A DNA stretch of 64,000 bases from an uncultured Bacilli bacterium (GCA_947625575.1 CANQOV010000001.1:1498-65497); one strand, 5' to 3'. Shown: positions 8,011 through 30,789, counted from the stretch's first letter. Numbers and translations: made by a program. Notes: a model not told the origin generated them from the sequence alone.

Positions 8011-8030
8011 CTATTTATGGTGATAATATT

Positions 8031-10048: not shown

Positions 10049-10058
10049 GCTTATAGGA

Positions 10059-10514
10059 GTGATAAAAATGAAATTTCATCATATTGGAATAGCAACAAAT
10101 AACATAGAAAGAACAAAAGAAAAATTACAAAAGTTTTTTAATGTAAAAGAAATATCAAATACCATATATGATAAAAATCAAGATGCGTACTTATGTATGA
10201 TCACTTTAGATGACAATATAAAAATTGAACTTATAAATGGCAAAGTAGTAGAAAATATTTTAAAGAAAAGACAATATCTATATCATACTTGTTATGAGAC
10301 AGATGATTTAGAAAATGAAATGAAAAAGTTAATAGATGATGGTGCTTTTCTTGTAAGTGATGCAAAAGAGGCAATTTTGTTTGATAACCAGAAAGTTGCT
10401 TTTTTGATGTGGGATTTAGGTCTCATAGAATTACTTCAAAAAGATATCCCGGGGGGGGTAATTTATAAAATCTTTTATAAATTATCAACAAATTTAGTAG
10501 GAGTGGTAGCATGA
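10059..10514 (+). CDS. VOC-family (glyoxalase / methylmalonyl-CoA epimerase fold) protein
   Basis: N-terminus MKFHHIGIATNNIER… is typical of VOC / glyoxalase-I-like enzymes. Contains a G8 homopolymer (10451-10458). Confidence 0.5.
   Translation: MIKMKFHHIGIATNNIERTKEKLQKFFNVKEISNTIYDKNQDAYLCMITLDDNIKIELINGKVVENILKKRQYLYHTCYETDDLENEMKKLIDDGAFLVSDAKEAILFDNQKVAFLMWDLGLIELLQKDIPGGVIYKIFYKLSTNLVGVVA
10451..10458 (+). repeat. G8 homopolymeric tract inside a CDS, 53 nt upstream of the overlapping MBOAT start
   Basis: CCCGGGGGGGGTAA, read directly. Gains or losses of one G create near-immediate stops (G7 gives …ccg ggg ggg TAA). Confidence 0.9.
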
Positions 10515-12040: not shown

Positions 12041-12048
12041 GTGATAAA

Positions 12049-13101
12049 ATGAAAAATTATAAAAATTTAATAAAAGTTATAATATTTATTTTTATATTTT
12101 GTATATTATGGCATATAACATTTAAAATATTGTGGGGTGAAAATACAGCACTTTCTTATTTTTATGAAGAAAAAGAAAACACAATTGATGTAGCCTATGT
12201 TGGTGCTAGTAATGTTTACGTATACTTTAACACAACACTTGCATACAACGAATATGGTTTTACAACCTATAATATTGCTACCGACTCGCAACCATTTGTC
12301 TATATAAAATACCTCCTTAAAGAAATTCAAAAATACCAAAAACCAAAACTTTACATAATTGATATAACGAGAATTATTTCAAATCCAGATTATTATGATG
12401 AAAATTCAATAAGAAAATTAATTGATAGTATGAAAAAATCATATAATCAATATGAAGCTTTAACTAGTGTTTTGGATTATTTAGAAATGCCAAATGAAGA
12501 AAGAGTAAATTATTATTTTAGTTTTCTTTTATATCACAATAGATGGGAAGACTTTAAAGGGAAAAGTTTGACTGAAAATACAAATTTATATAAAGGTTTT
12601 CAAACAAAAAATTATAATTTCAATATTAAACCTCAAAAGAAAATATTATGGAATAATGATTCATCTATTAAAGTAACTGACAAAAATAAAGAAGTTTTGC
12701 TAGATTTATTAGAATATATAAATGATAATAATTTAAACGTACTTTTTACAATTCCATGTAGAACATTTAATGCTACAGAAATGAGTAAATTAAATGATGC
12801 AACCAAAATTATTAATAAATATGACTACCAAGTAATAAATTTTAATCAAAATGATTCTTACATTGATTACTCAAATGACTTATATAATCCAAATCATTTA
12901 AATATATATGGCTCAACAAAATTTACATTATATTTTGCCAAATATTTAGATAATATTTATAATTTGCCTGATCATAGAAATGATGAAAAATATTCATCTT
13001 GGGTTGAAGAATACAATAGATTTAAAAGCAAATATGAGCAAAAAACAAATAATAATTTTGAAGCTTTAGTCAAAGAATATAAAGAAAAATATAATTTTTA
13101 A
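12049..13101 (+). CDS. DltD/AlgJ-like membrane-anchored SGNH-fold protein (MBOAT partner)
   Basis: N-terminal TM anchor. Putative nucleophile block VAYVGASNVY and His block NPNHLNIYG. Sits immediately after the MBOAT gene. Weak motif-level call. Confidence 0.4.
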   Translation: MKNYKNLIKVIIFIFIFCILWHITFKILWGENTALSYFYEEKENTIDVAYVGASNVYVYFNTTLAYNEYGFTTYNIATDSQPFVYIKYLLKEIQKYQKPKLYIIDITRIISNPDYYDENSIRKLIDSMKKSYNQYEALTSVLDYLEMPNEERVNYYFSFLLYHNRWEDFKGKSLTENTNLYKGFQTKNYNFNIKPQKKILWNNDSSIKVTDKNKEVLLDLLEYINDNNLNVLFTIPCRTFNATEMSKLNDATKIINKYDYQVINFNQNDSYIDYSNDLYNPNHLNIYGSTKFTLYFAKYLDNIYNLPDHRNDEKYSSWVEEYNRFKSKYEQKTNNNFEALVKEYKEKYNF

Positions 13102-13521: not shown

Positions 13522-14779
13522 TGATAGATATTTAACTATTACTCAAATAAATAAATATTTAAAATATAAATTTGATAATGATGATAATTTATCTATAGTA
13601 TATTTAAAAGGAGAAATATCAAATTTTAAGAATCATACTACAGGACATTTATATTTTACTTTAAAAGATGAAAATTCAAGAATACTAGCAATAATGTTTA
13701 AAAACAATGCCCAAAATTTAAAATTCCAACCAAAAGACGGCTCAAAAGTTTTAGTAACAGGTAAAATAAGTGTTTATGAAGCAACTGGAAATTATCAAAT
13801 ATATGTAACTGATATGCAAGAAGATGGAGTAGGAAACCTCTATTTAGAGTTTGAAAAATTAAAGAAAAAGTTGTCTGAACTTGGCTATTTTAATGAAGAT
13901 CATAAAAAACCAATACCAAAATTTCCAAGAAAAATTGGAGTAATAACTGCTAAAACAGGAGCAGCAATTAAAGATATAATTACTACAATCAATAGAAGAT
14001 ATAGAATATGCGAAATTTATTTATTCCCAGCACTAGTTCAAGGAGAAAATGCCAAAGAAGATATCGTTAGCAAATTAAAAATAGCAGATGAATATAACCT
14101 AGATGTAATAATATTAGGCCGTGGTGGTGGCTCAATTGAAGATTTATGGCCATTTAATGAAGAAATAGTAGCTAAAGCTATCTACGAAGCAAAAACACCA
14201 ATAATAAGTGCAGTAGGTCATGAAATAGATTTTACAATTGCAGATTTTGTTGCTGATTTAAGAGCACCAACACCAACCGCTGGAGCAGAACTTGCCGTAC
14301 CAAATCAACTAGAATTAAAAGAATATATAAAACAATTAGAATTACGACAAATAAAAAATATAAAACATTTAATTGAAACAAAAACAAAACATCTAGATTA
14401 TTTAAAATCAAATCATATCTTAAAAAATCCGATGGATATTTATATTGTAAAGCAACAAAAACTAGATATGTTAATAGAAAAAATGATTTATCTATTTAAA
14501 GAAAAATTAAACATAGCTAGTAATAAAATTACTATAACAAGTAATAACCTAAAAGTAGATATTAAAAATATCTTTGATAAAAAACAGATATATTTTACAA
14601 ATTTATTAAGTAAAATAGAAACACTAAATCCCATAAATACAATTAAAAGAGGTTATAGTATTACAAGATTAGATAATAAAATAGTAGATATTAAAAAAAT
14701 AAAAAAAGATGATTTAATAAAAACAGAATTACAAACTGGCTTTATAACATCTAAAGTAGTAGAAGTGGAGGAAAAATAA
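13499..14779 (+). CDS. xseA: Exodeoxyribonuclease VII large subunit
   Basis: OB-fold N-terminus (…[22 protein letters not shown]…), then the catalytic …[14 protein letters not shown]…[13 protein letters not shown]… core. Confidence 0.85.
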
Positions 14780-15003
14780 TGGAAAAAACCAAAAAAACAT
14801 TTGAAGAGAATTTAGAAGAACTAGAAAAAATAGTTAAAGATTTAGAAAATGGAGATATTCCCCTAGATGATGCAATAGATAAATTTAAAATTGCTATGGA
14901 TTTATCTAAAGAGTGCAATAAAACACTAGATGAAGCAACAAAAGTAGTAAGTAAAGTGCTAAATGAAAATAACGAATTAGAAGATTTCAAAATAGAAGAG
15001 TAA
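14779..15003 (+). CDS. xseB: Exodeoxyribonuclease VII small subunit
   Basis: 74-aa acidic coiled-coil protein (…[29 protein letters not shown]…) overlapping the xseA stop. Confidence 0.8.
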
Positions 15004-15021: not shown

Positions 15022-16131
15022 ATGGCTTATTTATTAATTATCCCCAAATTGATAATAAAATTTATTTATTTAATTTTTAGAATTTTTCCTATTAACGAAA
15101 AAAAAGTTGTTTTCATAAGTAGGCAATCTAATTCTATAACATTAGATTTTAAATTATTAAAAGAAGAAATAACAAAATTAGATGATAGTTTTAAAATAGT
15201 TGTGTTATGCAATAAATTACAAATGTCTTTTAAAGGAATAATTAGTTATTCTTTTGTAATAATTAAACAATTATATCATTTAGCAACTTCTAAAGTGTGT
15301 GTTGTTGATTCCTATTGCATGGCCTTAAGCAATGTAAAATTAAAAAAAGGAATAACTGTTATACAAATATGGCATGCAATAGCTACAATTAAAAAATTTG
15401 GATATCAAACAATATATAAACAATATGGAAGGCAAAGCAAAGTGGCTAAAATCCTTAATATGCATAAAAATTATGATTATGTAGTATCAGGATCAGAAAC
15501 TATGAAACCAATATTTGCTGAAGCTTTTAATGTGCCAACAAGTAAAGTTATCTGCTGTGGTACACCAAGAATAGATTATTTACTAAGAAATTGTGACAAT
15601 ATTAAAGATGAGATATTGAAACATTATCCTCAATTAACCAAAAAGAAGAATATTTTATATGCTCCAACTTTTAGAAGAGACAAGGATATTGGTATTAATA
15701 AATTAGTAAATATTATTGATTTTAATAAATATAATCTTATAGTTAAAACTCATCCAGTAAAAAATCAGACTTTTAATAATAAATTTATTTTAAATTGTAA
15801 AGAATTTATTACAACAGATTTACTAACTGTTGCTGATTATGTAATAACTGATTATTCTTCTATTTGTATAGAATCAGCTTTATTAAACAAGCCTACTTAT
15901 TTTTATTTATATGATATTGATGATTATAATAAATTTAATGGTTTAAATGTTGATTTAGAAAAAGAAATGAAGCCATATTGTTTTAAGAATTTTAATAAAT
16001 TATACAAATCATTAGAAAAAAATTACCAATACGAAAAATTACATAATCTAAAAAATAAATATGTTACAAATCAAAATGGAAATTCTACAACTACTTTAGC
16101 TGAACTTATTGTCCATAATAGGCAAAATTAA
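15022..16131 (+). CDS. CDP-glycerol glycerophosphotransferase family protein (TagB/TagF-like)
   Basis: TagF-family motif …IQIWHAIATIKKFGYQ… plus a C-terminal …YFYLYDIDDY… region. Confidence 0.65.
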   Translation: MAYLLIIPKLIIKFIYLIFRIFPINEKKVVFISRQSNSITLDFKLLKEEITKLDDSFKIVVLCNKLQMSFKGIISYSFVIIKQLYHLATSKVCVVDSYCMALSNVKLKKGITVIQIWHAIATIKKFGYQTIYKQYGRQSKVAKILNMHKNYDYVVSGSETMKPIFAEAFNVPTSKVICCGTPRIDYLLRNCDNIKDEILKHYPQLTKKKNILYAPTFRRDKDIGINKLVNIIDFNKYNLIVKTHPVKNQTFNNKFILNCKEFITTDLLTVADYVITDYSSICIESALLNKPTYFYLYDIDDYNKFNGLNVDLEKEMKPYCFKNFNKLYKSLEKNYQYEKLHNLKNKYVTNQNGNSTTTLAELIVHNRQN

Positions 16132-16138
16132 AATAATA

Positions 16139-16167
16139 TTGCTTATATCAATAATAAATGATAAAAT
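16139..16167 (+). promoter_or_regulatory. Possible sigma-A promoter ahead of the phosphonate module
   Basis: TTGCTT, 17-nt spacer, TAAAAT. RBS GAAAGGAAG before the ATG at 16196. Confidence 0.3.
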
Positions 16168-16195
16168 GTAATTATAGTGAAAGGAAGTAAACAAA

Positions 16196-17503
16196 ATGAA
16201 AAAAAAGGTTTATATAGCAATGTCTGCTGATGTTATACATCAAGGTCACATCAATATCATCGAAGAAGGTGCAAAATATGGAGATGTAATAATTGGTTTA
16301 CTAACTGATGAAGCTATTGCTAGTTACAAACGCATGCCACTATTAAATTATGAAAATAGAAAAAAAATATTTGAAAATCTTAAAAATGTTACTGAAATAG
16401 TACCACAAAGCACGCTTGACTATACTGAAAATCTAAGAAAAATTAAACCAGATTATGTATTACATGGAGATGATTGGCGTACAGGAATTCAAAGTGTAGT
16501 TAGAGATAATGTAATTAATACCTTAAAAGAATGGAACGGAGAATTAATTGAAATACCTTATACTAAAGATGTAAATTCTACTGATTTAGAACATAAATAT
16601 CGTGAACTTACAAATACACCTGATATAAGAAGAGCAAAACTTCGTCAACTTTTAAAATTTAAACCATATATAAGTGTTATGGAAGCATCAAATGGATTAT
16701 CAGGATTAATTGTTGAAAATGCAACTGCCATTAATCGCGATAGTAAAACGACAAAAGAGTTTGATGCGATGTGGGTTAGTAGTTTATGTGATTCAACATT
16801 TAAAGGAAAACCTGATATTGAATTAGTTGATTTAACTAGTAGAATAAATACAATCAATGAAATATTGGAAGTTACTACTAAACCAATAATATTAGATGGT
16901 GATACTGGTGGTAAAATAGAGCATTTTGTATACAATGTTAAAACCTTAGAAAGACTTGGAGTTTCAGCTATTATTATTGAAGATAAAACAGGTTTAAAGA
17001 AAAATTCATTATTTGGTACAGAAGTTAAACAAACTTTAGATGATCCAGATAGATTTGCAGAAAAAATAAAAGCAGGAAAACAAGCTCTTGCAACAAAGGA
17101 TTTCATGATTTTTGCAAGATTAGAAAGCTTAATTGCTGGTATGGGAATAGATGATGCTTTATCAAGAGCTGATAAATATATCGAAGCAGGAGCAGATGGA
17201 ATAATGATTCACAGCAAAGAAAAAACAGGATTGGATATAAAAGAATTTTTAGAAAGATTTAAGAAAAAATATCATAATGTTCCAACAATAGTAGTACCTA
17301 CTTCATATAATCAATTTACAGAAGAAGAATTACATGAGTGGGGTGCAAATATAATTATTCATGCAAATCATTTATTAAGGAGTGCATATCCAGCAATGAT
17401 GAAAACAGCTAAAACAATACTAGAAAATGGCAGAAGCAAAGAAGCTGATGAGTATTGTATGCCAATAAAAGAAATTATAACATTAATTCCGGGGGGAAAA
17501 TAA
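16196..17503 (+). CDS. pepM: Phosphoenolpyruvate mutase (PepM/AepX) with N-terminal cytidylyltransferase-like (HxGH) domain
   Basis: N-terminus …[16 protein letters not shown]… (HxGH nucleotidyltransferase). C-terminal PEP mutase core …ILDGDTGG…IIIEDK…. Confidence 0.8.
17492..17497 (+). repeat. G6 tract at the pepM stop / ppd start junction
   Basis: …att ccg ggg gga aaa TAA a ATG… Loss of one G puts ppd in frame with pepM. Confidence 0.85.
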
Positions 17504-17504
17504 A

Positions 17505-18614
17505 ATGATAGATACAGAAGAATTTTACAAATATTTAATTAGTAAAAAACTTGATTTTTTTGCTGGTGTTCCTGATTCTTTATTAAAAAACTTATGTGCT
17601 TGCATTAAAGCTAACACTAAAACAGATCACAACATCATTGCTGCCAATGAGGGAAATGCTATTGCAATGGCTGCAGGATATCATATTGCATCAGGCAATT
17701 ATGGTGTCGTATATATGCAAAATTCTGGTATCGGAAATGCAGTTAATCCATTACTTTCTTTAGTAGATGAAGAAGTGTATAGTATTCCAATGCTATTAAT
17801 TGTAGGTTGGAGAGGAGAGCCGGGCACAAAAGATGAGCCACAGCATGTTAAACAAGGAAAAGTAACTATTGAATTATTTAAAACAATGGGAATTGAAACT
17901 ATTATTTTAGATGAAAATTATAAAAGCCAAATAGACTATTGTTATAATTATATGAAAGAAAACAATAAACCAATTGCTGTTATCATAAAAAAAGGTTTAT
18001 TTAGTAATTATAAAATAGATATGCCTGAAAACAATTATCAAATAAAAAGAGAAGAAGCTTTAGAAACAATATTAAAATGTTTAGATAAAGATGATTTTGT
18101 AGTTTCAACTACAGGAAAAACATCAAGAGAAATTTTTGAAATAAGAGAAAGAGATAACGAAGAACACAGTAATGACTTTTTAACAGTTGGATCTATGGGA
18201 CATACTTCATCTATTGCACTTGGTATGAGTATTGGGTGTGACAAAAATATTTATTGTATAGATGGCGACGGATCTTTTATTATGCATATGGGCTCTTTTG
18301 CCATAATTCCATCAGTAGCAAGTAAAAATTTTAAATATATTTTAATAAACAATGGTGCTCATGAATCTGTAGGAGGTCAACCAACTGTAGCATTTAATAT
18401 TAACGTTAAAGATACATTATTATCATTAGGTTTTAAAAATGTTTATACAGCATATACAAAAGAAGATATTGAAAAATATATGAAAAATTTAAAATACGAC
18501 AAATTACAAGCATTAGTAGTTTACACTAAATTAGGATCTAGAGAAGATTTAGGACGTCCTACAATTAGTCCTGTTGATAATAAAAAATCAATGATGAAAA
18601 AATTAAATAAATAA
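17505..18614 (+). CDS. ppd: Phosphonopyruvate decarboxylase (TPP-dependent)
   Basis: TPP-binding motif …CIDGDGSFIMHMGS… Size 369 aa. Immediately downstream of pepM. Confidence 0.75.
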   Translation: MIDTEEFYKYLISKKLDFFAGVPDSLLKNLCACIKANTKTDHNIIAANEGNAIAMAAGYHIASGNYGVVYMQNSGIGNAVNPLLSLVDEEVYSIPMLLIVGWRGEPGTKDEPQHVKQGKVTIELFKTMGIETIILDENYKSQIDYCYNYMKENNKPIAVIIKKGLFSNYKIDMPENNYQIKREEALETILKCLDKDDFVVSTTGKTSREIFEIRERDNEEHSNDFLTVGSMGHTSSIALGMSIGCDKNIYCIDGDGSFIMHMGSFAIIPSVASKNFKYILINNGAHESVGGQPTVAFNINVKDTLLSLGFKNVYTAYTKEDIEKYMKNLKYDKLQALVVYTKLGSREDLGRPTISPVDNKKSMMKKLNK

Positions 18615-18643
18615 CATTAAAATGGAGGAAGTAATAATATTCA

Positions 18644-19387
18644 ATGAAAGCAATAATATTTAATTCAGGAATCGGAAAAAGGATGGGGGATTTCACAAAA
18701 ACACATCATAAGTGCATGGCTGTACTAAATAATGGTGAAACAATATTAGAACGTCAAATAAGAATAATTGGTGAAAATGGAATAAATACATTTATCATCA
18801 CAACCGGTCCATTTAAGCAACAATTATTAGAAGTATGCAAAAAATTCCCTGATTATCAATTTGTTTTTGTTGATAATCCTTTATATCAAAAAACAAATTA
18901 CATATATTCCATGTATTTAGCAAAAGATTATCTTAATGATGATGTTTTATTGCTTCATGGAGATTTAGTATTTAATCAAGAACTAGTAAAAAGTATGCTA
19001 GGTGATAAACGTAGTTCAGTATGTTTAATAAATGAAGACAAACCATTACCTGAAAAAGATTTTAAAGCAAGGGTAGAAAATGGATTATTAAAAGAAGTAT
19101 CAATAAATATCTTTGATAGCAATTGTTATGCTTTTGAGCCATTATACAAGTTAAGTAAATCTGATTTATTAAAATGGCTAGAAAAAGTGAAAGAATTTGT
19201 AAATGAGGGCAATGTAAGCGTTTATGCCGAAAATGCATTGAATACTATATTAGACACATTAAAAATATATACTAAATCATATAAAAATGATTATATTGAT
19301 GAAATAGATAATATTGATGATTATTCAAGAGTTAGAAAAGAAATAGATGAATATGAAAAGAAAAGATTAAGATCTTTGAGAGGATAA
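18644..19387 (+). CDS. LicC/PntC-like cytidylyltransferase (NDP-activation of a phosphonate or phospho-alcohol)
   Basis: N-terminus MKAIIFNSGIGKRMG… gives the nucleotidyltransferase G-x-G-x-R motif. About 240 aa, as for LicC. Confidence 0.6.
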   Translation: MKAIIFNSGIGKRMGDFTKTHHKCMAVLNNGETILERQIRIIGENGINTFIITTGPFKQQLLEVCKKFPDYQFVFVDNPLYQKTNYIYSMYLAKDYLNDDVLLLHGDLVFNQELVKSMLGDKRSSVCLINEDKPLPEKDFKARVENGLLKEVSINIFDSNCYAFEPLYKLSKSDLLKWLEKVKEFVNEGNVSVYAENALNTILDTLKIYTKSYKNDYIDEIDNIDDYSRVRKEIDEYEKKRLRSLRG

Positions 19388-19388
19388 A

Positions 19389-21707
19389 ATGAAACAACAA
19401 ATATATATTGATAATTATAAAAATTTAAATAAAAAAATAGATTTTAAAAAATACAAATCAATTTTATTGATTTGTAGTAATTTTATTTTAGATTCATTTT
19501 TTTATGATTACATAACTAAATTGAATTTACCAATACATATTTTTACAAATTTTAGTCCTAATCCTAAATATGAAGAAGTTCTAGAAGGTATAAAAATTTT
19601 TAAAGAAAATAAATGTGATTTTCTTATAGCAGTGGGTGGAGGAAGTGCCTTAGACGTTGCAAAAGCTATCAAAGCTTTTGTGTTTTTAGATGAAAATAAA
19701 AATTATTTAGAGCAAAAAATAGTGCCAAATAATATACCACTTCTTGCTGTTCCAACCACTGCAGGAACAGGTAGTGAAGCTACAAAATTTGCCGTTATAT
19801 ATTACGCTGGAGCAAAACAGTCATTAGAAGATGAATCATTGCTTCCAGATTATGTAATACTTGAGCCAAAGTTTCTAGAAAGCCTACCAGAATATCAAAA
19901 AAAATCAACTCTTTTAGATGCTTTATGTCATGCAATAGAATCATACTGGTCAATTAATGCTACCAAAGAAAGTAGAAAATATGCCAAACAAAGTTTAGAA
20001 ATAATTCTTAAAAACTATAAAGATTATCTAAATAATCCAACAAAAAAATTAAATAGTGAAATATTAAAAGCAGCTAATTTAAGTGGAAAAGCCATAAATA
20101 TAAGTAAAACGACCGCAGCTCATGCCATGAGTTACAAAATAACATCAATATATGGTTTATCACACGGACACGCTGCTGCAACATGTCTTCCACTTGTATG
20201 GAAATATATGTTAAAATACTCTAACAAAGAATTAGATAAAATATTTAATGATTTAGATAAAATATTTAAGACAACTTCACACCAAGAATCTATTAATAAA
20301 TTGTATTCAATCTATGATGAAATAGGATTAAAATATAAAAACATTGTAAATAAAGAGGATTTAGATAAATTAGTGGAAACAGTTAATATAAATCGTTTAA
20401 AAAATAGTCCAGTACCATTAACACAAAAAGATGTGAAAAAGATATATAGTAAATTAGTTATAAAAGAAAACAAAACATTTAAAAAAAGTATTAAAAACGT
20501 CGTAAATAAAATTCCTTTCATCAAAAAAATATTAAATTATCTTTTATTAATAAAAAGGAAAGTAGTATATAAATTTTATAAAATACGTTACAAAACCAAT
20601 GATAAAATAATCATATTTTCATCTTTTTGGAGTAAAAAATATAATTGTAATCCTAAAGGTATATATGAAGCATTATTAAAGAACAAAAAATATAACGACT
20701 ATAAATTTGTTTGGGTATTTAAAAATCCAAAGCAGTACACTTTTTTAAATGATAACCATAATACCACAACAGTGCGTTTATATTCTAAAAAGTACTATAA
20801 ATATTGTGCACAAGCCAAATATTTTATAACTAATGTTTCATTACCTAGTTGGGTAACACCAAAGAAAGATCAAATATATATAAATACTTGGCATGGTAAA
20901 CCAATGAAAAAAATTGGTTGTAATATAGATCACTCTGCTTTACCACCAAAAAAACTAAAAAAGCAAACAAAAGGATTTAAAAGAAATGGCAAAATATTTA
21001 CCTACTTGTTTTCACCAGCACCATTTTTTACAGCACAAATGGCTACAGCCTATGGTCTTGGAAAAGATAGCAAAAAAGTTATTGAAGTAGGCTATCCAAG
21101 AAATGATTTTTTATTCACATATACAGCCAAAGATGCTAAAGAAATAAAAGATAAATTAAATATTAAAGATAATAAAAAAGTTATATTTTATGCTCCAACT
21201 TGGAGAAATTATGAATATGATACTAAAAAATATAGTTATACTTATCAAAATCATCTAGACTTTGATAAATTAATTAAACAACTAGGAAATGATTATGTAA
21301 TTTTATTTAAAGCCCACAATCAAGAAGAGAACAGTGCTGATATATCAAATTATAAAAATGTTATTGATGTTAGTAGTTTTGACGATATTAACGAATTGTA
21401 TATCATCTCAGATTTAATGATTTCTGATTATTCTGGAGCAATCTTTGACTATGCTAACTTACATCGACCAATGGTTTATTACATGTGGGATAAAGATGAA
21501 TATGTAAATGAAAGTCAAGGCATTGACTTTGATTTTAACGAATTGCCCGGAGAAATTGTTACAAAAGAAGAAAATTTAGCTTCTGCTATAAAAAATGCAT
21601 TAAATAATTTTAAGTATGATGAAAAATATAAAAAATTTAATGAAAGATATAATTGCTTAGATGGAAAAGATTGTGGAAATAAATTCATTGAAAAATATAT
21701 AAAATAG
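19389..21707 (+). CDS. Fusion protein: N-terminal iron-containing alcohol dehydrogenase (putative phosphonoacetaldehyde reductase) and C-terminal TagF-like CDP-alcohol phosphotransferase
   Basis: N-terminal …LIAVGGGSALDVAKAIKAF… is the group-III Fe-ADH signature. C-terminal …YINTWHGKPMKKIG… is the TagF-family motif. 772 aa. Confidence 0.6.
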   Translation: MKQQIYIDNYKNLNKKIDFKKYKSILLICSNFILDSFFYDYITKLNLPIHIFTNFSPNPKYEEVLEGIKIFKENKCDFLIAVGGGSALDVAKAIKAFVFLDENKNYLEQKIVPNNIPLLAVPTTAGTGSEATKFAVIYYAGAKQSLEDESLLPDYVILEPKFLESLPEYQKKSTLLDALCHAIESYWSINATKESRKYAKQSLEIILKNYKDYLNNPTKKLNSEILKAANLSGKAINISKTTAAHAMSYKITSIYGLSHGHAAATCLPLVWKYMLKYSNKELDKIFNDLDKIFKTTSHQESINKLYSIYDEIGLKYKNIVNKEDLDKLVETVNINRLKNSPVPLTQKDVKKIYSKLVIKENKTFKKSIKNVVNKIPFIKKILNYLLLIKRKVVYKFYKIRYKTNDKIIIFSSFWSKKYNCNPKGIYEALLKNKKYNDYKFVWVFKNPKQYTFLNDNHNTTTVRLYSKKYYKYCAQAKYFITNVSLPSWVTPKKDQIYINTWHGKPMKKIGCNIDHSALPPKKLKKQTKGFKRNGKIFTYLFSPAPFFTAQMATAYGLGKDSKKVIEVGYPRNDFLFTYTAKDAKEIKDKLNIKDNKKVIFYAPTWRNYEYDTKKYSYTYQNHLDFDKLIKQLGNDYVILFKAHNQEENSADISNYKNVIDVSSFDDINELYIISDLMISDYSGAIFDYANLHRPMVYYMWDKDEYVNESQGIDFDFNELPGEIVTKEENLASAIKNALNNFKYDEKYKKFNERYNCLDGKDCGNKFIEKYIK

Positions 21708-21719
21708 AAAGGGGTATTT

Positions 21720-24149
21720 ATGAATAAAAACATAAAAGTCTCGGTTATCGTTCCGGTGTATAATGTAGAAAAATATTTAGATAAATGTTTAACATCATTA
21801 GTTAATCAAACACTGAAAGATATTGAAATAATTGTAGTAAATGATGGTACCAAAGACAATTCACAACATATTATTGATAAATATACTAAACAATATCCAA
21901 ATAAGGTTTTTTCCTATATTAAAGAAAATGGTGGATTATCTTCTGCTAGGAACTATGGTGTTTTAAAAGCACACGGGGAATATTTAGGCTTTGTTGATAG
22001 TGATGATTACGTTGATATAAATATGTATGAACTTATGTACAATAAAGCTCATAACACTTCATCTGATATTGTTGTATGTGGACTTACTTCAATATATCAA
22101 AATAAAGATACTCTTAAATTTGTCCCTCAAACTGATATTTTTGGCTATTCACTTACAGAAAGTCCAGACATAATGTTGCAGTGTAATTCATATGCTTGCA
22201 ACAAAATTTATAAAAGAAAAATGTGGATAGATAACAACATTGAATTTCCTAATCAATGGTTTGAAGATAGTGCTTTAATATATAACGCTTTATATTATGC
22301 AAATAAAATTGAGGTGGTAAAAGAGCCACTTTACATGTACTTAAGAACTAATGAAAACTCTATTGTTAATACAATTAATCCCAAGATATTTGATATCTTT
22401 AAATCTTGTGATTCATTATTATCTTTTTATAAAGATAAAGGTAATGACTTATATAGAAATGCTTGCAACTTATGTATTTCCCATGTAACAGCAAGATTTT
22501 TATATTTTAAAAATTCTCACGATAAAAAAATTATCAATGATTTTAAAAATAAAGCCAAAGATTACTTTGATAAGCATATTCCAAATTGGGATAGTAGAAA
22601 ATATCAAAAAGAATTACATTATAGACCAAAATTCATAAAAAATGGTATCACATATATAAACAATAAATTTCTTTACGATTTACTAAAAATAATAGAAAAA
22701 ATAAAAAAAGTATTAATAAAAATTGCAAAGAAAATGTTAAGAATTTTATCAAAAATATTTAATAAAAAAAGAGATGTCGCTCCTCTTAAAGATGTATTTA
22801 AAATATTTAAAAAATTAAATATAACTTACTTTTGTGAATTTAACACTTTAATTGAAGTAACAAACAATAAAATGCCAAACAGTAATTCTTTAAATATTGG
22901 TATTATATTAAATAATGATAAAATTAATATTTTAAAATATAATTTACTACAAAAAAATATAATTTTAAAAAAAGAATATTACTACAATAATAAAGTATAT
23001 GCTCAAGATTATCTATACGAAAAATTAAAAATAAGATTTAATTTTTATGAAATAGAAGATAAAAAACTAATAACTTATGTTTTTAAAAAATTAAAAAATA
23101 TCAAATATAAACCATACAAAATAGATGCTTTAAAAATTAAACAAACAATAATAAAAGATATAGAAACAGTTAATATCAATAATATAGAATTTTCCATACC
23201 AAAAAACTATGATGAAATATTAAAAACAGATTATGGATTAAGCTATATTAAATCAAATAATATAAAAGACATAAAAAACTCTGAAATAATAAAAAACAAT
23301 TCTTATTTTAAAAGAATAATAAGTTATAATAATGATGGCATTGATTATAGAGAAGAAAATTATAAAATGCTACAAGAACTACATAAAATAGAGCTTGAAA
23401 TTCTAAAAGAAATAAATAAAATATGTAAACGCAATAAAATAAATTTCTATTTAGGTGAAGGGACATTACTAGGAGCAGTAAGACATCAAGGATTCATACC
23501 ATGGGATGATGATATTGATTTAATTATGCCAAGAGAAGATTATGAAAAATTCTTAAAAATTGCCCCACAAGAAATATCAAAAGATTTTGAAATTCAGCAT
23601 AGTTCTTTAATTGAAAATTATTGGTCTCCTTTTATTAAAGTAAGATATTTAAAAGAAAACAAATTTAAACAAACGCACATTGCACATTTAACTGATCATA
23701 ATGGTCCATTAATTGATATTTTCCCTTTAGATAATGTTCCAAAAAAAGATAGTTTAGGTCAAATGATACAAGCAATAAGAATCAAATTTAACCGAGGGAT
23801 GTTATCATATAAATTAAAAACAAGATTTCCTAAAAAGTGGAAAGGATATATTGTTAAATGTTGTTCTTACTTTGTAAGTGTAAAACATATTCATAAAGTA
23901 TTAAATAAAACTTTTGTTAAATACAACAATAAAAATAATCCATATATTGTTAATTTAGGAAGTTACTATAGTTATAAAAAACAAACACATCCTAAAAAAT
24001 GGTATGCTAAACCACAAATGGTAAAATTTGAAAATTTGACTATGCCAATACCACATGAGGCCAAAAAAATATTATCAAGTGTATATGGCAAATATATGGA
24101 ACTACCACCTGTTGAAAAAAGAGCTATAAAACATCACTTTGATGAATAA
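21720..24149 (+). CDS. Fusion protein: N-terminal GT2 glycosyltransferase, long K/N/I-rich middle region, C-terminal LicD-family phosphotransferase
   Basis: N-terminal …VSVIVPVYNVEKYLDKCL…VVNDGTKDN…GFVDSDD… is GT-A/GT2. C-terminal …GEGTLLGAVRHQGFIPWDDDIDLIMPRED… is the LicD motif. 809 aa. Confidence 0.65.
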   Translation: MNKNIKVSVIVPVYNVEKYLDKCLTSLVNQTLKDIEIIVVNDGTKDNSQHIIDKYTKQYPNKVFSYIKENGGLSSARNYGVLKAHGEYLGFVDSDDYVDINMYELMYNKAHNTSSDIVVCGLTSIYQNKDTLKFVPQTDIFGYSLTESPDIMLQCNSYACNKIYKRKMWIDNNIEFPNQWFEDSALIYNALYYANKIEVVKEPLYMYLRTNENSIVNTINPKIFDIFKSCDSLLSFYKDKGNDLYRNACNLCISHVTARFLYFKNSHDKKIINDFKNKAKDYFDKHIPNWDSRKYQKELHYRPKFIKNGITYINNKFLYDLLKIIEKIKKVLIKIAKKMLRILSKIFNKKRDVAPLKDVFKIFKKLNITYFCEFNTLIEVTNNKMPNSNSLNIGIILNNDKINILKYNLLQKNIILKKEYYYNNKVYAQDYLYEKLKIRFNFYEIEDKKLITYVFKKLKNIKYKPYKIDALKIKQTIIKDIETVNINNIEFSIPKNYDEILKTDYGLSYIKSNNIKDIKNSEIIKNNSYFKRIISYNNDGIDYREENYKMLQELHKIELEILKEINKICKRNKINFYLGEGTLLGAVRHQGFIPWDDDIDLIMPREDYEKFLKIAPQEISKDFEIQHSSLIENYWSPFIKVRYLKENKFKQTHIAHLTDHNGPLIDIFPLDNVPKKDSLGQMIQAIRIKFNRGMLSYKLKTRFPKKWKGYIVKCCSYFVSVKHIHKVLNKTFVKYNNKNNPYIVNLGSYYSYKKQTHPKKWYAKPQMVKFENLTMPIPHEAKKILSSVYGKYMELPPVEKRAIKHHFDE

Positions 24150-24153
24150 AAAT

Positions 24154-24189
24154 ATATTTAGAATAATAAACTAAATATGTTTTTTTATT
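24154..24189 (+). terminator. Putative rho-independent terminator after the GT2::LicD gene
   Basis: ATATTTAG-aataataaa-CTAAATAT followed by GTTTTTTTATT. The stem is AT-rich, so the hairpin is weak. Confidence 0.35.
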
Positions 24190-24368
24190 AAATTTATTTT
24201 AATTTTCTGATTATTTAGTTTTTATCATGTACATAATAAAAAATAGTAACTTCTTTAGAAATATCATACAATAAATATTCAGTGATATTAATCAATAAGA
24301 ATAATATGAAGTCATCAAAAGAATTTAATTGATTTTCATATATAATATGATTATGCCCTGACATATTG

Positions 24369-24397
24369 TTGACAGAGTCCGGGGGGGGGGTTATAAT
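24369..24397 (+). promoter_or_regulatory. Promoter with a homopolymeric G10 tract forming the -35/-10 spacer (candidate phase-variable promoter)
   Basis: TTGACA (24369-24374), spacer GAGTCC+G10+T = 17 nt, TATAAT (24392-24397). RBS AAGGTGG, then ATG at 24432. Confidence 0.5.
24381..24390 (+). repeat. G10 homopolymer (simple-sequence contingency tract)
   Basis: Ten consecutive G in an AT-rich genome, read directly. Confidence 0.95.
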
Positions 24398-24431
24398 AAA
24401 AATATAAATTAGTATATCAAAGGTGGTTTAA

Positions 24432-25220
24432 ATGAAAGAAAAAATATTGTTATTTATACCAATGTATAACTGTGAAAAACAAGTAATAAGAGTTTTAAAT
24501 CAAATAGATAGCGAAGTAGCAAAATATATAAAAGAAATATTAGTAGTAAATAACCGAAGCACCGATAATGGTGAAAAAGCTGTGCTCGATTTCACCAAAC
24601 AAAGCAAGCTTAAAATTACTATAGTAAGAAATGATGAAAACTATAACCTTGGAGGATCACATAAAGTTGCTTTTCAATATGCAATTGATAATGAATATGA
24701 CTATGTAATTGTATTGCATGGTGATGATCAAGGTAATATTCATGATTTATTACCTTATCTTAAAAATGAAGATTATAAAAAATATGATTGTTTACTTGGA
24801 TCACGATTTATAAAAGGATCAAAATTACAAGGATATTCTAAATTTAGAACATTTGGTAATATAGTATATAACTATTTATTTTCTTTTGTAATTCATAAAA
24901 GAGTATATGATTTAGGATCTGGATTAAATATGTATTCTACTGAAATGTTAAAAAGCAATTACTATTTTAAATTCCCAGATAAATTAACATTTAACTATTT
25001 AATGGTATTAGCAATACATTACTATCATCAAAATGTTAAATTTTTCCCAATTACATGGAGGGAAGATGATCAAGTATCTAATGTTAAAATGGTTAATCAA
25101 GCATTTGAGGTTTTAAAAATGTTATTTAAATACATGTTTAATCATGATTATATAAAAAGTGAATTTAGAGATAAACAAGTACGAAAATATACATATAAGG
25201 AAATAAAAAATGACAAATAA
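24432..25220 (+). CDS. GT2 family glycosyltransferase (GtrB / polyprenyl-phosphate sugar synthase-like, soluble form)
   Basis: …LLFIPMYNCEKQV…VVNNRSTDN…VLHGDDQG… 262 aa. Confidence 0.65.
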   Translation: MKEKILLFIPMYNCEKQVIRVLNQIDSEVAKYIKEILVVNNRSTDNGEKAVLDFTKQSKLKITIVRNDENYNLGGSHKVAFQYAIDNEYDYVIVLHGDDQGNIHDLLPYLKNEDYKKYDCLLGSRFIKGSKLQGYSKFRTFGNIVYNYLFSFVIHKRVYDLGSGLNMYSTEMLKSNYYFKFPDKLTFNYLMVLAIHYYHQNVKFFPITWREDDQVSNVKMVNQAFEVLKMLFKYMFNHDYIKSEFRDKQVRKYTYKEIKNDK

Positions 25221-26088
25221 AAGTAAATGGATATATAATTTTATAAATATTGGATTTTTATTAATTACTTTAATATTCTTTTTTCAAAAACGTTTATATA
25301 TCATAAATCCAAATTTTACTATTTTTCAATTTTTCTTACTTGTTTTACTCATAATTTTTATTCACTCTTTAAAGTTTTTTAAACTTTATTTTATCGTATT
25401 AGAAGAAAAAATTCCTTTTAAAAATATGCTGAAAATATATATAAAATCAACTTTTTCTAGCATAGTATTGCCTTTTAAAATAGGAGAAATATATAAAGCA
25501 TATTTAATAGGTCATGAAATAAAAAATTATAAAAAAGGTATTATAGCAGTTCTTATTGATAAATTTTATGACGCAATAATTCTTTGCATATCCTTTATCT
25601 GTTATAGCATAATTGCAAATGTAACATTAACAATAACAACCTGGATACTTTTAATTATAATTATTATGATAGTAATTGTATATTATTCTTTTCCAGGAAC
25701 ATATCGCTATTTAAATCGTTTCTTTATTCAAGGCAAACACTCTAACAGAAACATATACGTTTTGCGTGTTTTAGAAAGTTTAGAAAGTTGTTATACAACA
25801 GCAAAAGAAATGATTTGTGGAAGAAGCCTTTTATTTGTTTCACTTGGAATATTTTACTGGCTAGGTGAATCTGTATTTATTTATTTTGTAGTACATGCTT
25901 ATGGATTATTAATAAATTTTGGAAACGTTGTTTTATATGTTAACGATGCCTTTTTAGGAATAAATAATCCTATTTTTAACGTTTATGTATCTATGTGTAC
26001 ATTATTATTTATAATTGCTATAGCATTTATATATTTTGAAAAATATTTTTTAGGAGGTAACAATGAAAAAGTTAGCAGTCATTTATGA
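25210..26088 (+). CDS. Polytopic membrane protein, flippase-like domain (LPG-synthase TM region / PF03706-like)
   Basis: About 8 TM segments. A …LPFKIGEIYKAY… motif is reminiscent of the PF03706 flippase-like family that commonly pairs with GT2 enzymes. Overlaps the upstream gene. Confidence 0.4.
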   Translation: MTNKSKWIYNFINIGFLLITLIFFFQKRLYIINPNFTIFQFFLLVLLIIFIHSLKFFKLYFIVLEEKIPFKNMLKIYIKSTFSSIVLPFKIGEIYKAYLIGHEIKNYKKGIIAVLIDKFYDAIILCISFICYSIIANVTLTITTWILLIIIIMIVIVYYSFPGTYRYLNRFFIQGKHSNRNIYVLRVLESLESCYTTAKEMICGRSLLFVSLGIFYWLGESVFIYFVVHAYGLLINFGNVVLYVNDAFLGINNPIFNVYVSMCTLLFIIAIAFIYFEKYFLGGNNEKVSSHL

Positions 26089-27484
26089 TGATAGAATAGA
26101 GTCAAATGATAGGATAAAAACAATTATTGGCAATAATAGTTTTGGTAACGTTGTCATAAAAAGAAAAAAATTATTTCAATACATAGAAGAAATAGTAGGT
26201 GAAACACCTGATATACTTTTTGAAAAAATTACAAAAGATAGCAACATCACTTTTGCAGATACCGATGATTACGTATATTTTTATATCAAATCAACATCAG
26301 CAGTAATAGATGTAAAAGAATTCAAAATTATATTAGAAAAATTAAGATACATCAACGAAACTACTAAAGTTATGACTAATGAAAAGATGTCAGGTATAGC
26401 TTTTTGTAATTTTGAATTGTTAAAAGACTTTTTAAAAAATATGACTGTTTCTTCAAAAACTAATCAAATAAATACTGCCTGCTTCTCTGATATATCTTCG
26501 TATGATAATTTATTAATGTATATTTCTAGTGCTTTTGATTCTAGATATTTTAATAGTATTTCAGGGGATAAATATTATGTAGAAAAAAAGAGCAAAGATA
26601 AAAAGAAAATGAAAATGGAATATAGCTATTACTGGTTAATTCCAGAAGAAATGAAAAGCTTTATGGTTTTACCATACGACTATAAAGAAGAAAAAGACTA
26701 TGCATCATATAAAATGGAAAGGATGCCTATGACAGACATTGCTATTCGTTTTACCCATCATGCCGTTGACCTAGATGAATTTAAAAAAATATTAGATAAA
26801 ACTTTTCACTTCTTCAATAGTAGAACTAAAAAAGAAATAACCAAAGAAAAATATATAGAAATGGCTAAATCATTATATATTACTAAAACAGAAGAACGTT
26901 TAAAAAAATTAAAAAGTACTGAAGAATATGAAACATTAAATTTATATATTAAAAATGGCACAAAATTTAATGATATAGAAGAAATTTACCAAGAATATGA
27001 AACAATTTATGAAAAAATGATGACAAAATATTTGAAAAAAGAAAAGAAATTTTATCAAGTAATTGGCCATGGAGATGTTTTCTTTGCCAATATGTTATAT
27101 AGCAAAGAAATAAATTTATTGAGACTTATTGATCCCAAAGGAGCTTTGACAGAAGAAGATTTATATATGAATCCTTATTATGATATTGCTAAATTATCAC
27201 ACTCAATATGTGGTAGATATGACTTTTTTAACACTGATATGTACGACATTACAATAAATAAAGATATGAAACTTGAATTAAATATTGATTTTGATAATAC
27301 ACCTTATATTATGGTATTCAAACAATATTTAGATGACAATGGTTATAACTATTCGTTAACCAGATTATTTGAAGCGAGTTTATTTTTATCAATGCTACCA
27401 CTTCATATAGATAATCCAAGAAAAGTATTAGGATTTATCTTAAATGCTATTACTATTTTACAGGAGGTAAAAAAATATGTATAA
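26063..27484 (+). CDS. Two-domain protein with C-terminal APH/choline-kinase-like small-molecule kinase domain
   Basis: Brenner-type catalytic motif …VIGHGDVFFANMLY… (HGDxxxxN) and downstream …RLIDPKG… The N-terminal 220 aa has no recognisable motif. Confidence 0.4.
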   Translation: MKKLAVIYDDRIESNDRIKTIIGNNSFGNVVIKRKKLFQYIEEIVGETPDILFEKITKDSNITFADTDDYVYFYIKSTSAVIDVKEFKIILEKLRYINETTKVMTNEKMSGIAFCNFELLKDFLKNMTVSSKTNQINTACFSDISSYDNLLMYISSAFDSRYFNSISGDKYYVEKKSKDKKKMKMEYSYYWLIPEEMKSFMVLPYDYKEEKDYASYKMERMPMTDIAIRFTHHAVDLDEFKKILDKTFHFFNSRTKKEITKEKYIEMAKSLYITKTEERLKKLKSTEEYETLNLYIKNGTKFNDIEEIYQEYETIYEKMMTKYLKKEKKFYQVIGHGDVFFANMLYSKEINLLRLIDPKGALTEEDLYMNPYYDIAKLSHSICGRYDFFNTDMYDITINKDMKLELNIDFDNTPYIMVFKQYLDDNGYNYSLTRLFEASLFLSMLPLHIDNPRKVLGFILNAITILQEVKKYV

Positions 27485-27878
27485 TGACATAACTTTAGTT
27501 TTTGATGTAGATGGCACTCTTTGTCCGATTAAAACTACTGATGAAGAATACAAAGACTTAATACCAGATAAAGAAATGGTTGAGAAATTAAAAATGTACA
27601 AAAAAGAGGGTGCCAAAATTATTATATATTCATCAAGAAACATGAGAACATATCAAGGCAACATAGGTCTTATAAATGCTAATACAGCTGTAATTATGCA
27701 AGATTGGTTAAAAAAATGGGATATTCCTTATGATGAAATATATTTTGGCAAGCCATGGGCAGGTAAAAAAGGAATATACATAGATGATCGTTGTGTAAGA
27801 CCTGATGAATTTCTAAATTATTCTTTTGATGAACTTGAACAAATATGTAAAAAATCTAGTAGAGTAAAAGGAGAATAA
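27477..27878 (+). CDS. Small HAD-superfamily phosphatase
   Basis: HAD motif I …LVFDVDGTLCP… and motif IV …GIYIDDR… 133 aa. Confidence 0.55.
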   Translation: MYNDITLVFDVDGTLCPIKTTDEEYKDLIPDKEMVEKLKMYKKEGAKIIIYSSRNMRTYQGNIGLINANTAVIMQDWLKKWDIPYDEIYFGKPWAGKKGIYIDDRCVRPDEFLNYSFDELEQICKKSSRVKGE

Positions 27879-27882
27879 AATT

Positions 27883-28602
27883 ATGCAAATAATTATAACT
27901 ATGGCAGGGTTAGGCTCTAGATTTCGTAAAGCAGGATATGACATGCCTAAATATATGATTGAAGTAAAAGGTAAAACTTTATTTGAGTGGTCTATGTCAA
28001 GCCTAAAAGATTTTAATTCTTTAGAAAAGTTAAAATACATATTCATTGTACGCAAAGAAGACAACGCTAAAGAATTTATCCTAAATAAAATGAAAAATGA
28101 AAAAGTAGAAAATATAAAAGTAATTGAAATAGATGAATTAACTGATGGTCAAGCTACAACAGCATATTTAGCAAAAGATTATTGGGATTCTGATGATGAA
28201 ATGATTGTTTACAATATTGATACTTATGTAGAAGCATATACTATATGTTATAAAGATATTAAAGGTGATGGCTTTATTCCTTGCTTTAATGCCCCAGGTG
28301 ATCATTGGAGCTTTGTAAAAACAGATAGTAATAACAAAGCCATAGAAATAAGAGAAAAAGTAAAAATATCTGATAATTGTACTATTGGATTATATTATTT
28401 TAAATCTTGTAAATTATATGAAAACTTGTATCAAGAATACTACAGCAACAATGACCACTTAGAAAAAAATGAAAAATATATTGCTCCTTTATATAATCAT
28501 ATGTTAGAAAAAAATATGGACATATATATAAATATCTTACCTAAAGAAAAAGTACATGTATTAGGAACACCAGAAGAAGTGGAAGAGTTCAAAAAATTAT
28601 GA
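27883..28602 (+). CDS. Nucleotidyltransferase (LicC / sugar-1-P or phospho-alcohol NDP-transferase-like)
   Basis: N-terminus MQIIITMAGLGSRF… is a G-x-G-S-R nucleotidyltransferase loop. 239 aa. Confidence 0.55.
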   Translation: MQIIITMAGLGSRFRKAGYDMPKYMIEVKGKTLFEWSMSSLKDFNSLEKLKYIFIVRKEDNAKEFILNKMKNEKVENIKVIEIDELTDGQATTAYLAKDYWDSDDEMIVYNIDTYVEAYTICYKDIKGDGFIPCFNAPGDHWSFVKTDSNNKAIEIREKVKISDNCTIGLYYFKSCKLYENLYQEYYSNNDHLEKNEKYIAPLYNHMLEKNMDIYINILPKEKVHVLGTPEEVEEFKKL

Positions 28603-30662: not shown

Positions 30663-30733
30663 ATATAAACCTTGGTTTCAACTTGCAAATATACTGCTTT
30701 GTGCGATATAATAATACAGTAAATGAAAAACAA

Positions 30734-30762: not shown

Positions 30763-30789
30763 ACAAATACAAACAAAAAGAGGTGTTAC

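Follow-up and report, generated by a model that had tools for sequence, protein, structure and literature searches.

What becomes of phosphonoacetaldehyde in a wall-polymer locus that encodes an alcohol dehydrogenase where a transaminase would be expected, and onto what is the product transferred? The question is raised by a 64,000-nucleotide stretch of DNA from an uncultured Bacilli bacterium (GCA_947625575.1, CANQOV010000001.1:1498-65497), referred to below as the window and numbered from its first nucleotide (nt). Five plus-strand genes at 16196-24149 encode a cytidylyltransferase (CT) domain fused to phosphoenolpyruvate (PEP) mutase (PepM), a phosphonopyruvate decarboxylase (Ppd), a nucleotidyltransferase (NT), an iron-dependent alcohol dehydrogenase (Fe-ADH, or ADH) fused to a TagF-type domain, and a GT2 glycosyltransferase fused to a LicD-type phosphotransferase; fusions are written below with a double colon. 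An earlier interpretation made from the nucleotides alone (the sequence-only reading) had proposed that these genes make 2-hydroxyethylphosphonate (HEP) and decorate a wall glycopolymer with it. Our analysis favours a HEP version of the bacterial phosphonyl-tailoring (Pnt) pathway, encoded at 15022-24149 at the head of a wall-teichoic-acid-type locus. We give the whole predicted chain, through export, a probability of about 0.6.

In the proposed pathway, the PepM domain would convert PEP to phosphonopyruvate, Ppd would decarboxylate this irreversibly to phosphonoacetaldehyde, and the Fe-ADH domain would reduce the aldehyde to HEP. HEP and cytidine triphosphate would then yield cytidine monophosphate (CMP)-HEP through the PntC-like NT, the Fom1-type CT domain on PepM, or both. 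The LicD domain, and probably also the ADH-fused TagF domain, would move the hydroxyethylphosphonyl group of CMP-HEP onto a hydroxyl of a lipid-linked glycopolymer, one sugar of which would come from the GT2 domain of GT2::LicD. A TagGH-like ABC transporter would export the polymer, and a second cassette would glycosylate it further outside the membrane.

The committed steps of phosphonate synthesis

PepM and Ppd, which commit a cell to phosphonate synthesis, can be firmly assigned by comparison with curated families, because both exceed NCBIfam equivalog cut-offs (Table 1) and the PepM active-site motif is present. This motif, EDKxxxxxNS, lies at amino acids (aa) 262-271 (nt 16979-17008). The models for methylisocitrate lyase, phosphonopyruvate hydrolase and carboxyphosphonoenolpyruvate (CPEP) mutase scored at most 133.9 bits, all under their own cut-offs. 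Ppd carries both the N- and the C-terminal thiamine pyrophosphate domains (PF02776 and PF02775). The sequence-only reading, which had named the same two enzymes, had also raised the chance that PepM is a methylisocitrate-lyase paralogue; that candidate is ruled out, since the phosphonate-specific motif is present and the equivalog cut-off of TIGR02320 is passed.

A candidate phosphonoacetaldehyde reductase

HEP rather than 2-aminoethylphosphonate (AEP) is predicted because an Fe-ADH stands in for the transaminase. The domain has a group-III Fe-ADH fold with GGGSALDVAKAI at aa 83-94, a GGGS NAD motif and all metal ligands (D177, H181, H245 and H259). Its best ADH family in NCBIfam is the phosphonate-associated TIGR03405 (159 bits, 1.3e-46). 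Ranking of solved structures placed Thermotoga TM0920 (1o2d) first, sulfoacetaldehyde reductase (6jko) second and glycerol dehydrogenase last.

The characterised reductase PhpC binds HEP via Lys157, Thr256, Tyr264 and Arg349, of which Tyr264 is strictly conserved and is Phe in sulfoacetaldehyde reductases (PMC13576164). T241 and Y249 of the window's domain show the same 8-residue spacing as PhpC Thr256 and Tyr264, a match made by spacing and through the 6jko alignment, not with the PhpC sequence itself. In the alignment of the best ADH homologues, T241, H245, Y249, K143 and R336 are invariant among 120 family members, and 112 of them have a basic residue (Arg, Lys or His) at position 133. The invariant R336 and the basic position 133 are as would be expected for an anionic substrate. 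At the Tyr249 position 6jko has Phe; in most generic Fe-ADHs, Val and His stand in place of the Thr/Tyr pair. The second metal-ligand position, His181 in the window (nt 19929-19931), is Gln in 106 of the 120 homologues and in 6jko and His in the window and 13 others; this split points to two metal-site variants within one clade.

The fusion partners of the ADH were surveyed in its 120 best relatives from a search of 5.8 billion proteins. The ADH is fused to a PntC-like NT in 76 of them (∼600 aa), to LicD in more than 30 (∼655 aa) and to TagF in 4; fusions to CT plus NT (∼747 aa) also occur.

Gene linkage was scored by tblastn with the window's own proteins in 89 fetched loci, referred to by L numbers. 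PepM or Ppd is adjacent in 13 of the 15 independent informative loci whose ADH is at least 37% identical (L002, L004, L006, L008, L010, L011 and L013-L019), and the ADH lies between PepM and Ppd in five of these (L010, L013, L015, L017 and L019). L005, L007 and L009, extra contigs with the same proteins, agree, and L001 reaches a contig edge directly upstream of its NT. Among the remaining 70 loci, with ADHs at most 38% identical, PepM-Ppd occurs in only two, Streptomyces L023 and L037, which we take to be natural-product clusters; the window's Fe-ADH is only ∼30% identical to theirs. The CT::PepM-Ppd-NT(::)ADH-LicD core was found in metagenome-assembled genomes (MAGs) of Lachnospiraceae, Oscillospiraceae, other Clostridia, Defluviitaleaceae and Lentisphaeria, mostly from rumen and gut, and all retrieved uncultured gut and rumen Bacillota loci share it.

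The window itself was searched by a Pfam scan of all its open reading frames (ORFs) of at least 100 aa, except short ones nested antisense inside annotated genes. No class-V aminotransferase of the AEP transaminase (AEPT) type (PF00266) was found in the 64 kb; the sole aminotransferase is of class III (60446-61708), beside recA and 36 kb from the cluster. Reduction of phosphonoacetaldehyde to HEP by the Fe-ADH is likely, because family scores, fusion partners, synteny and signature residues, taken together, favour it. The preference for HEP over AEP in the sequence-only reading is thus upheld by the PepM/Ppd linkage, by the Thr/Tyr signature, by the distance from glycerol(-phosphate) dehydrogenases and by the lack of an AEPT in the window.

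Two possible routes to an activated phosphonate

Both activating enzymes of the sequence-only reading, a LicC/PntC-like NT and an HxGH cytidylyltransferase on PepM, are present. The HxGH motif of the CT domain is HQGH (aa 15-18, nt 16238-16249), and the domain is 58% identical, over 134 aa and ungapped (E=5.9e-51), to PDB 5x3d; the match to TagD (1coz) reaches just 3e-9. The 5x3d entry is a 160-aa chain deposited as 'phosphoenolpyruvate phosphomutase', which we take to be the CyTase domain of Fom1. Fom1 CyTase turns HEP into CMP-HEP (Cho 2017, as cited in PMC6697681). By this comparison the CT domain would be a Fom1-type HEP cytidylyltransferase and a predicted source of CMP-HEP.

The separate NT is encoded one gene away from PepM. 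Its best solved relatives are Tde1415 PntC-AEPT (6pd1, 2.4e-11) and LicC (1jyk, 3.8e-10), and it is an orthologue of the NT domain in the NT::ADH fusions, with which it shares the invariant motif LHGDLVF (nt 18953-18973). In Treponema denticola PntC (Tde-PntC), Glu104 and Glu196 form an acidic pair that contacts the AEP amine. The window's NT retains the equivalent of Glu196 and has His105 at the position of Glu104, and this His is invariant in all 76 ADH-fused NT domains. The NT is PntC-like in its working, and its head-group preference is probably different. NT::ADH is thus the counterpart of the known NT::AEPT fusion, but its head-group pocket is altered, because the NT is orthologous to the NT::ADH half and His105 replaces Glu104. 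Clusters with both a PepM-fused and a separate NT have been noted before, without explanation (Rice et al. 2019, PMC6697681).

LicD and TagF as candidate transferases

The sequence-only reading had assigned LicD and TagF-like domains, and both are confirmed by family searches (Table 1). The LicD acidic motif WDDDIDL lies at aa 595-601 (nt 23502-23522). No transferase is found with the ADH/phosphonate module more regularly than LicD: LicD alone, ADH::LicD and GT2::LicD recur beside PepM-Ppd-NT::ADH in L004, L006/L007 and L008. The GT2::LicD fusion recurs in L006/L007, where the L006 protein is 54-55% identical to that of the window.

The TagF domain is 35% identical to Staphylococcus epidermidis TagF (3l7i, E=9e-67) and scores 252 bits with the NCBIfam TarF model, whose cut-off is 550. 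Alignment to 3l7i showed that two conserved His residues are retained, one of which has been mutated to Asn in entry 3l7j (NTWHGKP, nt 20883-20903; the other is in LFKAHNQ, nt 21303-21323). We take these to be TagF His444 and His584. In one relative, L002, the module forms a compact cassette of PepM, Ppd, NT and ADH::TagF::LicD, and no other activated-donor pathway was found among its listed genes.

Weighing the alternatives

Several points weigh against a HEP pathway that feeds this polymer. The Fe-ADH score of 159 bits misses the TIGR03405 cut-off (423.7 bits) by far, so the domain belongs to a separate clade of the same superfamily and is not an orthologue of the characterised PhpC/PsrA group. 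The equivalent of Tyr249 also occurs in TM0920 and is not unique to phosphonate enzymes. PepM and Ppd were not found within 10 kb of the ADH in L003 and L012; either the phosphonate genes lie elsewhere in those genomes or the ADH clade has a second substrate. PF01467::PepM fusions are found in AEP clusters too (PMC6697681), and CMP-HEP could be made by the NT, by the CT domain or by both, roles that are not separable at the level of sequence. The TagF domain, being a close relative of a genuine CDP-glycerol polymerase, may act without any contact to phosphonate. Finally, an AEPT or tagD could lie elsewhere in the genome, of which only 64 kb are visible. The two loci mentioned above have features of their own: their ADH relatives (49% identity in L003, 10001-13986; 43% in L012) stand near TagGH, TagF and LicD genes, and that of L003 is an ADH::LicD fusion.

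Within the HEP reading, the placement of the phosphonate has two competing forms. In the first, the TagF enzymes would build a poly(glycerol-phosphate) or sugar-phosphate chain from CDP-glycerol supplied by a tagD elsewhere, LicD would add HEP as a side group, and the ADH::TagF fusion would reflect co-localisation with no shared substrate. Its strongest arguments are the resemblance of the TagF domain to the S. epidermidis enzyme, with both His residues kept, and the standing of LicD as the most frequent transferase partner of the ADH, whether in ADH::LicD fusions or as stand-alone LicD in L004, L006 and L008. However, no glycerol-3-phosphate cytidylyltransferase gene (tagD), and no tagO, tagA or LCP gene, was found in the 64-kb window, L002 shows the phosphonate genes and ADH::TagF::LicD with no other donor pathway listed, and all other fusion partners of the ADH (NT and LicD) are predicted to act on HEP or CMP-HEP. 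We regard this form as possible but less likely than not. Some direct use of CMP-HEP by TagF is favoured, because of the gene content of L002 and the predicted substrates of the other ADH fusion partners.

The second form takes that use to its end: CMP-HEP would be the TagF donor and HEP a repeating backbone unit, giving a 'phosphono-teichoic acid' with carbon-phosphorus (C-P) bonds in its backbone linkages. Such a polymer could consist of sugar-O-P(O)(O-)-CH2CH2-O-sugar repeats, in which GT2 would glycosylate the HEP hydroxyl and TagF/LicD would re-attach HEP, or could contain a poly(HEP) stretch. The ADH::TagF fusions, some with an added LicD or MptE-like domain, form a small recurrent family that resembles in build the multi-domain TagF-like capsule polymerases such as Cps3D (PDB 8qoy), in which TagF is likewise fused to other transferase domains. 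On chemical grounds, CMP-HEP resembles CDP-glycerol, and HEP has a primary hydroxyl as glycerol does; the gene content of L002 fits as well. We know of no polymer with in-chain HEP. The argument is purely inferential, as TagF donor specificity cannot be read from sequence, and a rare fusion may be a neutral event, so that we consider this form rather unlikely. The word 'decoration' in the sequence-only reading therefore stands only in part: the HEP assignment has the support of synteny, residues and fusions, but the phosphonate could just as well be an in-chain unit as a pendant one.

It is improbable that the product is AEP after all, made by a transaminase encoded elsewhere, with the ADH in an unrelated role. 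AEP is the commonest surface phosphonate, accounting for 56% of ppm neighbourhoods (PMC8942020), the inspection covered just 64 kb of the genome, and PF01467::PepM together with PntC is also found in AEP clusters (PMC6697681). Set against this, many lineages show this clade of ADHs in tight synteny with the phosphonate genes and fused into them, the NT is without the amine-binding Glu104, and the transaminase lies inside the characterised AEP clusters, even fused to PntC in Tde1415 (PMC6697681).

Still less probable is that the ADH supplies glycerol, glycerol phosphate or another polyol to TagF, as an enzyme of the Gtp1 or glycerol-1-phosphate (G1P) dehydrogenase type, with the phosphonate genes separate. 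The direct fusion to a glycerophosphotransferase domain, a weak match to PF13685 (Fe-ADH_2) and the presence in L003 of ADH::LicD and TagF with no PepM nearby would suit it. The scores do not: the G1P dehydrogenase model gives 3.4e-4 and the glycerol dehydrogenase model 2.6e-9, against ∼1e-46 for the phosphonate-associated ADH family, and glycerol dehydrogenase is the weakest solved match. The role would also leave phosphonoacetaldehyde with no consuming enzyme, and it runs counter to the PepM/Ppd synteny of the clade. A dehydrogenase acting on glycerol or glycerol phosphate, the latter named by the sequence-only reading as an outcome that would overturn its proposal, is rejected in view of the family scores and the structure ranking. 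A soluble fosfomycin-like natural product can be dismissed almost outright: the first three steps and the CyTase domain do match Fom1, Fom2 and FomC, but a Fom3-type radical-SAM methyltransferase, a Fom4 epoxidase, a FomD hydrolase and resistance genes are all lacking, and the surrounding genes encode only wall-polymer transferases and an exporter.

Layout and setting of the locus

The five genes are close-packed, with intergenic spacing of 1-29 bp, and the genes, domains and motifs of the sequence-only reading were found exactly where it had placed them. Its left boundary has to be moved, as the unit starts earlier and includes a TagF-like gene at 15022-16131, which ends 64 bp before the PepM gene. 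The best NCBIfam model for the product of this gene is TarB (149 bits, well under the cut-off of 500), and a hydrophobic helix is found at its N-terminus (aa 1-24). The sole large gap of the locus, 282 bp, follows 24149 and holds a promoter-like sequence between the phosphonate cassette and the downstream cassette; promoter-like sites are as a class not enriched in this AT-rich DNA, so the site is only suggestive. The transcription unit is most likely 15022-24149, given the tight spacing, the upstream TarB-like gene and the 282-bp gap with its promoter.

Table 1. Coordinates of the features of the wall-polymer locus and its left border within the window.
Feature	Position	Strand	Evidence
xseB	14779-15003		74-aa ORF, below threshold of first ORF list
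TagF-family glycerophosphotransferase, TarB (primase)-like, first gene of the unit	15022-16131	+	PF04464, 201 bits
CT::PepM protein, PF01467 cytidylyltransferase fused to PEP mutase	16196-17503	+	Pfam, NCBIfam
Fom1-type CT domain at PepM N-terminus	16205-16606	+	PF01467, 50 bits
PEP mutase domain	16631-17494	+	TIGR02320, 389.5 bits (cut-off 319.55)
Phosphonopyruvate decarboxylase (Ppd)	17505-18614	+	TIGR03297, 435.5 bits (cut-off 312.5)
PntC/LicC-like NT	18644-19387	+	PF12804, 34.5 bits (cut-off 27)
ADH::TagF protein, Fe-ADH fused to PF04464 TagF-type domain	19389-21707	+	Pfam
Fe-ADH domain, predicted phosphonoacetaldehyde reductase	19389-20468	+	PF00465, PF25137
TagF-type phosphotransferase/polymerase domain, fused to ADH	20577-21665	+	PF04464, 308.7 bits
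GT2::LicD protein	21720-24149	+	PF00535, PF04991
GT2 glycosyltransferase domain	21720-22364	+	PF00535, 123 bits
LicD-type phosphotransferase domain, fused to GT2	23424-24089	+	PF04991, 155 bits
Sigma-70-like promoter, TTGACA-17-TATAAT, 12/12	24369-24397	+	sequence match
Second cassette: GT2, LPG_synthase_TM protein, kinase-like protein, HAD phosphatase, NT-like protein, GtrA::multi-transmembrane protein	24432-30662	+	family searches
ABC-2 permease and TagH-like ATPase, predicted exporter of lipid-linked polymer	30790-32315	+	PF01061, PF00005

The ORF listing of the window showed an unbroken series of plus-strand genes at 15022-32315, in DNA whose G+C content is ∼25% across the whole 64 kb. This locus, which the phosphonate cassette opens, is of the wall-teichoic-acid type: it has a TarB-like primase, a second cassette for glycosylation and an exporter resembling TagGH. 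Housekeeping genes flank this locus, nusB, xseA and xseB on one side and spoIVB on the other. We read the ORF at 14779-15003 as the exonuclease VII small subunit XseB, an assignment made without a family search; it ends 18 bp before the first gene of the wall-polymer locus. Lying between xseB and spoIVB, the locus may be a variable island. The host is a low-GC, spore-forming member of the Bacillota; its nearest RecA match is 87% identical, and relatives at ∼81% are MAGs labelled 'Bacilli bacterium'.

In the second cassette, the GT2 protein resembles a polyprenyl-phosphate-sugar synthase, the HAD phosphatase is EcbF/BcbF-like and the NT-like protein is similar to sugar-1-phosphate nucleotidyltransferases. 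The gene order of the cassette recurs in L090 (6313-12785) without PepM or other phosphonate genes. For the exporter, TagH models gave the best matches, 216 and 194 bits, under their cut-offs of 538 and 320. The kinase-like protein of the second cassette (26063-27484), soluble and 473 aa long, had no Pfam or NCBIfam match. Its family numbers at least 1,887 proteins of ∼475-480 aa, mostly unannotated or 'hypothetical', and a few homologues match PF02958 (EcKinase) weakly. Its HGDxxxxN...IDP motif (GHGDVFFANM, 27065-27094) recalls choline/aminoglycoside kinases.

Two further gene sets stand upstream of the locus. A Dlt-like set at 7608-13101, whose loader is unusual, comprises an AcpS-like phosphopantetheinyl transferase (minus strand), an FkbH-domain protein (592 aa), a 79-aa carrier protein, a glyoxalase/VOC protein, a DltB-like MBOAT protein and a 350-aa protein with a single N-terminal transmembrane helix. 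This set suggests that a wall polymer is esterified with an acyl group derived from glycolysis instead of D-alanine. At the start of the window (396-3469), a type II/IV secretion-like ATPase (T2SSE) and two T2SSF-domain proteins are probably a pilus or competence system, unrelated to the phosphonate genes.

How rare the architecture is

The sequence-only reading had called the all-fused architecture unusual. This holds for ADH::TagF, the rarity of which was gauged with an index-free HMMER search of 1.84 billion representatives that gave 3,319 matches at 1e-30. Only ∼12 of the best 150 matches, which were inspected, combine an Fe-ADH with a TagF domain; in five of these ∼12 the ADH belongs to the same clade as that of the window, and most have a further MptE-like or LicD domain. 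The claim does not hold for the other fusions, as 23.6% of all Ppm enzymes have the CT::PepM build (PMC6697681) and GT2::LicD recurs in the loci described above. In the literature searched, which left most subscription journals outside its coverage, neither a teichoic acid that contains phosphonate nor an ADH::TagF fusion was found described.

Several proteins (P0001, encoded at 713-3961 of L001, P0395 and P0397-P0406) combine Fe-ADH, TagF and MptE-like (PF01973) domains, and some have ∼220 extra N-terminal residues and a degenerate ADH. The L001 gene is followed by genes for CMP-Kdo synthesis, LicD and an ABC-2 permease, an arrangement that hints at Kdo-containing teichoic-like polymers in Gram-positive MAGs.

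Discussion

A close known counterpart of the window's cassette is the Pnt pathway, which puts 2-AEP on cell-surface glycans in Atopobium rimae, Olsenella uli and Treponema denticola (Rice et al. 2019, PMC6697681). Its clusters likewise combine an NT-fused PepM, Ppd and a separate LicC-like PntC with LicD-type transferases and glycosyltransferases, and each has two nucleotidyltransferases. There, too, an NT can be fused to the enzyme that consumes phosphonoacetaldehyde: Tde1415 is PntC::AEPT, and its counterpart among the window's relatives is NT::ADH. The window differs in that an Fe-ADH replaces the transaminase, so that HEP and not AEP is predicted, in the His at the Glu104 position of the NT, and in the addition of TagF-type transferases and a TagGH-type exporter.

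The predicted chemistry is that of the fosfomycin producer Streptomyces wedmorensis, where Fom1 (CyTase::PepM), Fom2 (Ppd) and FomC (Fe-ADH) lead from PEP through phosphonopyruvate, phosphonoacetaldehyde and HEP to CMP-HEP, as Cho et al. 2017 are cited in PMC6697681. The window has no Fom3, Fom4 or FomD, and its CMP-HEP is predicted to be the donor of a glycopolymer transferase and not a transient intermediate. A PepM-Ppd-PhpC-type logic that feeds a polysaccharide is also reported for the HEP phosphonoglycans of Glycomyces and Stackebrandtia nassauensis (Yu et al. 2014, as cited in PMC8942020 and PMC13576164) and for the PhpC gene-cluster families (Li & Horsman 2022). The phosphonoglycans are actinobacterial exopolysaccharides and no ADH::TagF is described for them, whereas the window holds a teichoic-acid-type locus of the Bacillota.

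From the wall teichoic acid pathway (TagB/TagF/TagGH) the window has TarB-like and TagF-like domains, the conserved His pair and a TagH-like ABC exporter. It departs from that pathway in that the N-terminal domain of TagF is swapped for an alcohol dehydrogenase, in the lack of tagD, tagO and tagA from the window, and in a donor that is perhaps a CMP-phosphonate. The Lic pathway for phosphocholine (LicA/LicC/LicD) shares with it cytidylyl activation followed by LicD transfer to teichoic-acid sugars; in pneumococci, phosphocholine is attached by LicD1/2. In the window, the head group would instead be made de novo from PEP and be C-P linked, and the phosphonate cassette contains no choline kinase or transporter.

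The literature already anticipates a HEP branch that uses nucleotidyl activation and LicD, and this type of pathway has been predicted in gut and rumen bacteria. Among the ppm neighbourhoods of complete genomes, 8.5% belong to the HEP branch (PMC8942020). What is rare here is the wiring: within a TagGH-type locus, the ADH is joined to a polymerase fold of the TagF kind.

Bacteria are thought to use C-P biosynthesis mainly for surface phosphonates, and outside AEP almost no products are chemically defined. The transferases that act after CMP activation are uncharacterised, and this locus and its relatives offer a testable set of NT, ADH, LicD and TagF proteins. The recurrence of the HEP-type module in the retrieved uncultured gut and rumen Bacillota bears on the unexplained environmental abundance of HEP and of HEP-degrading genes (PMC13576164). 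The ADH::TagF protein physically couples phosphonate synthesis to a teichoic-acid polymerase fold, and is the best lead on whether TagF enzymes use CMP-phosphonates and on C-P wall polymers. If HEP does lie within the chain, the C-P bonds of the polymer should withstand phosphatases and phosphodiesterases, and its phosphorus would be harder to scavenge. C-P wall polymers, if real, would alter the phosphate economy of the cell, its susceptibility to phosphate-ester hydrolases, and its recognition by phages and the immune system.

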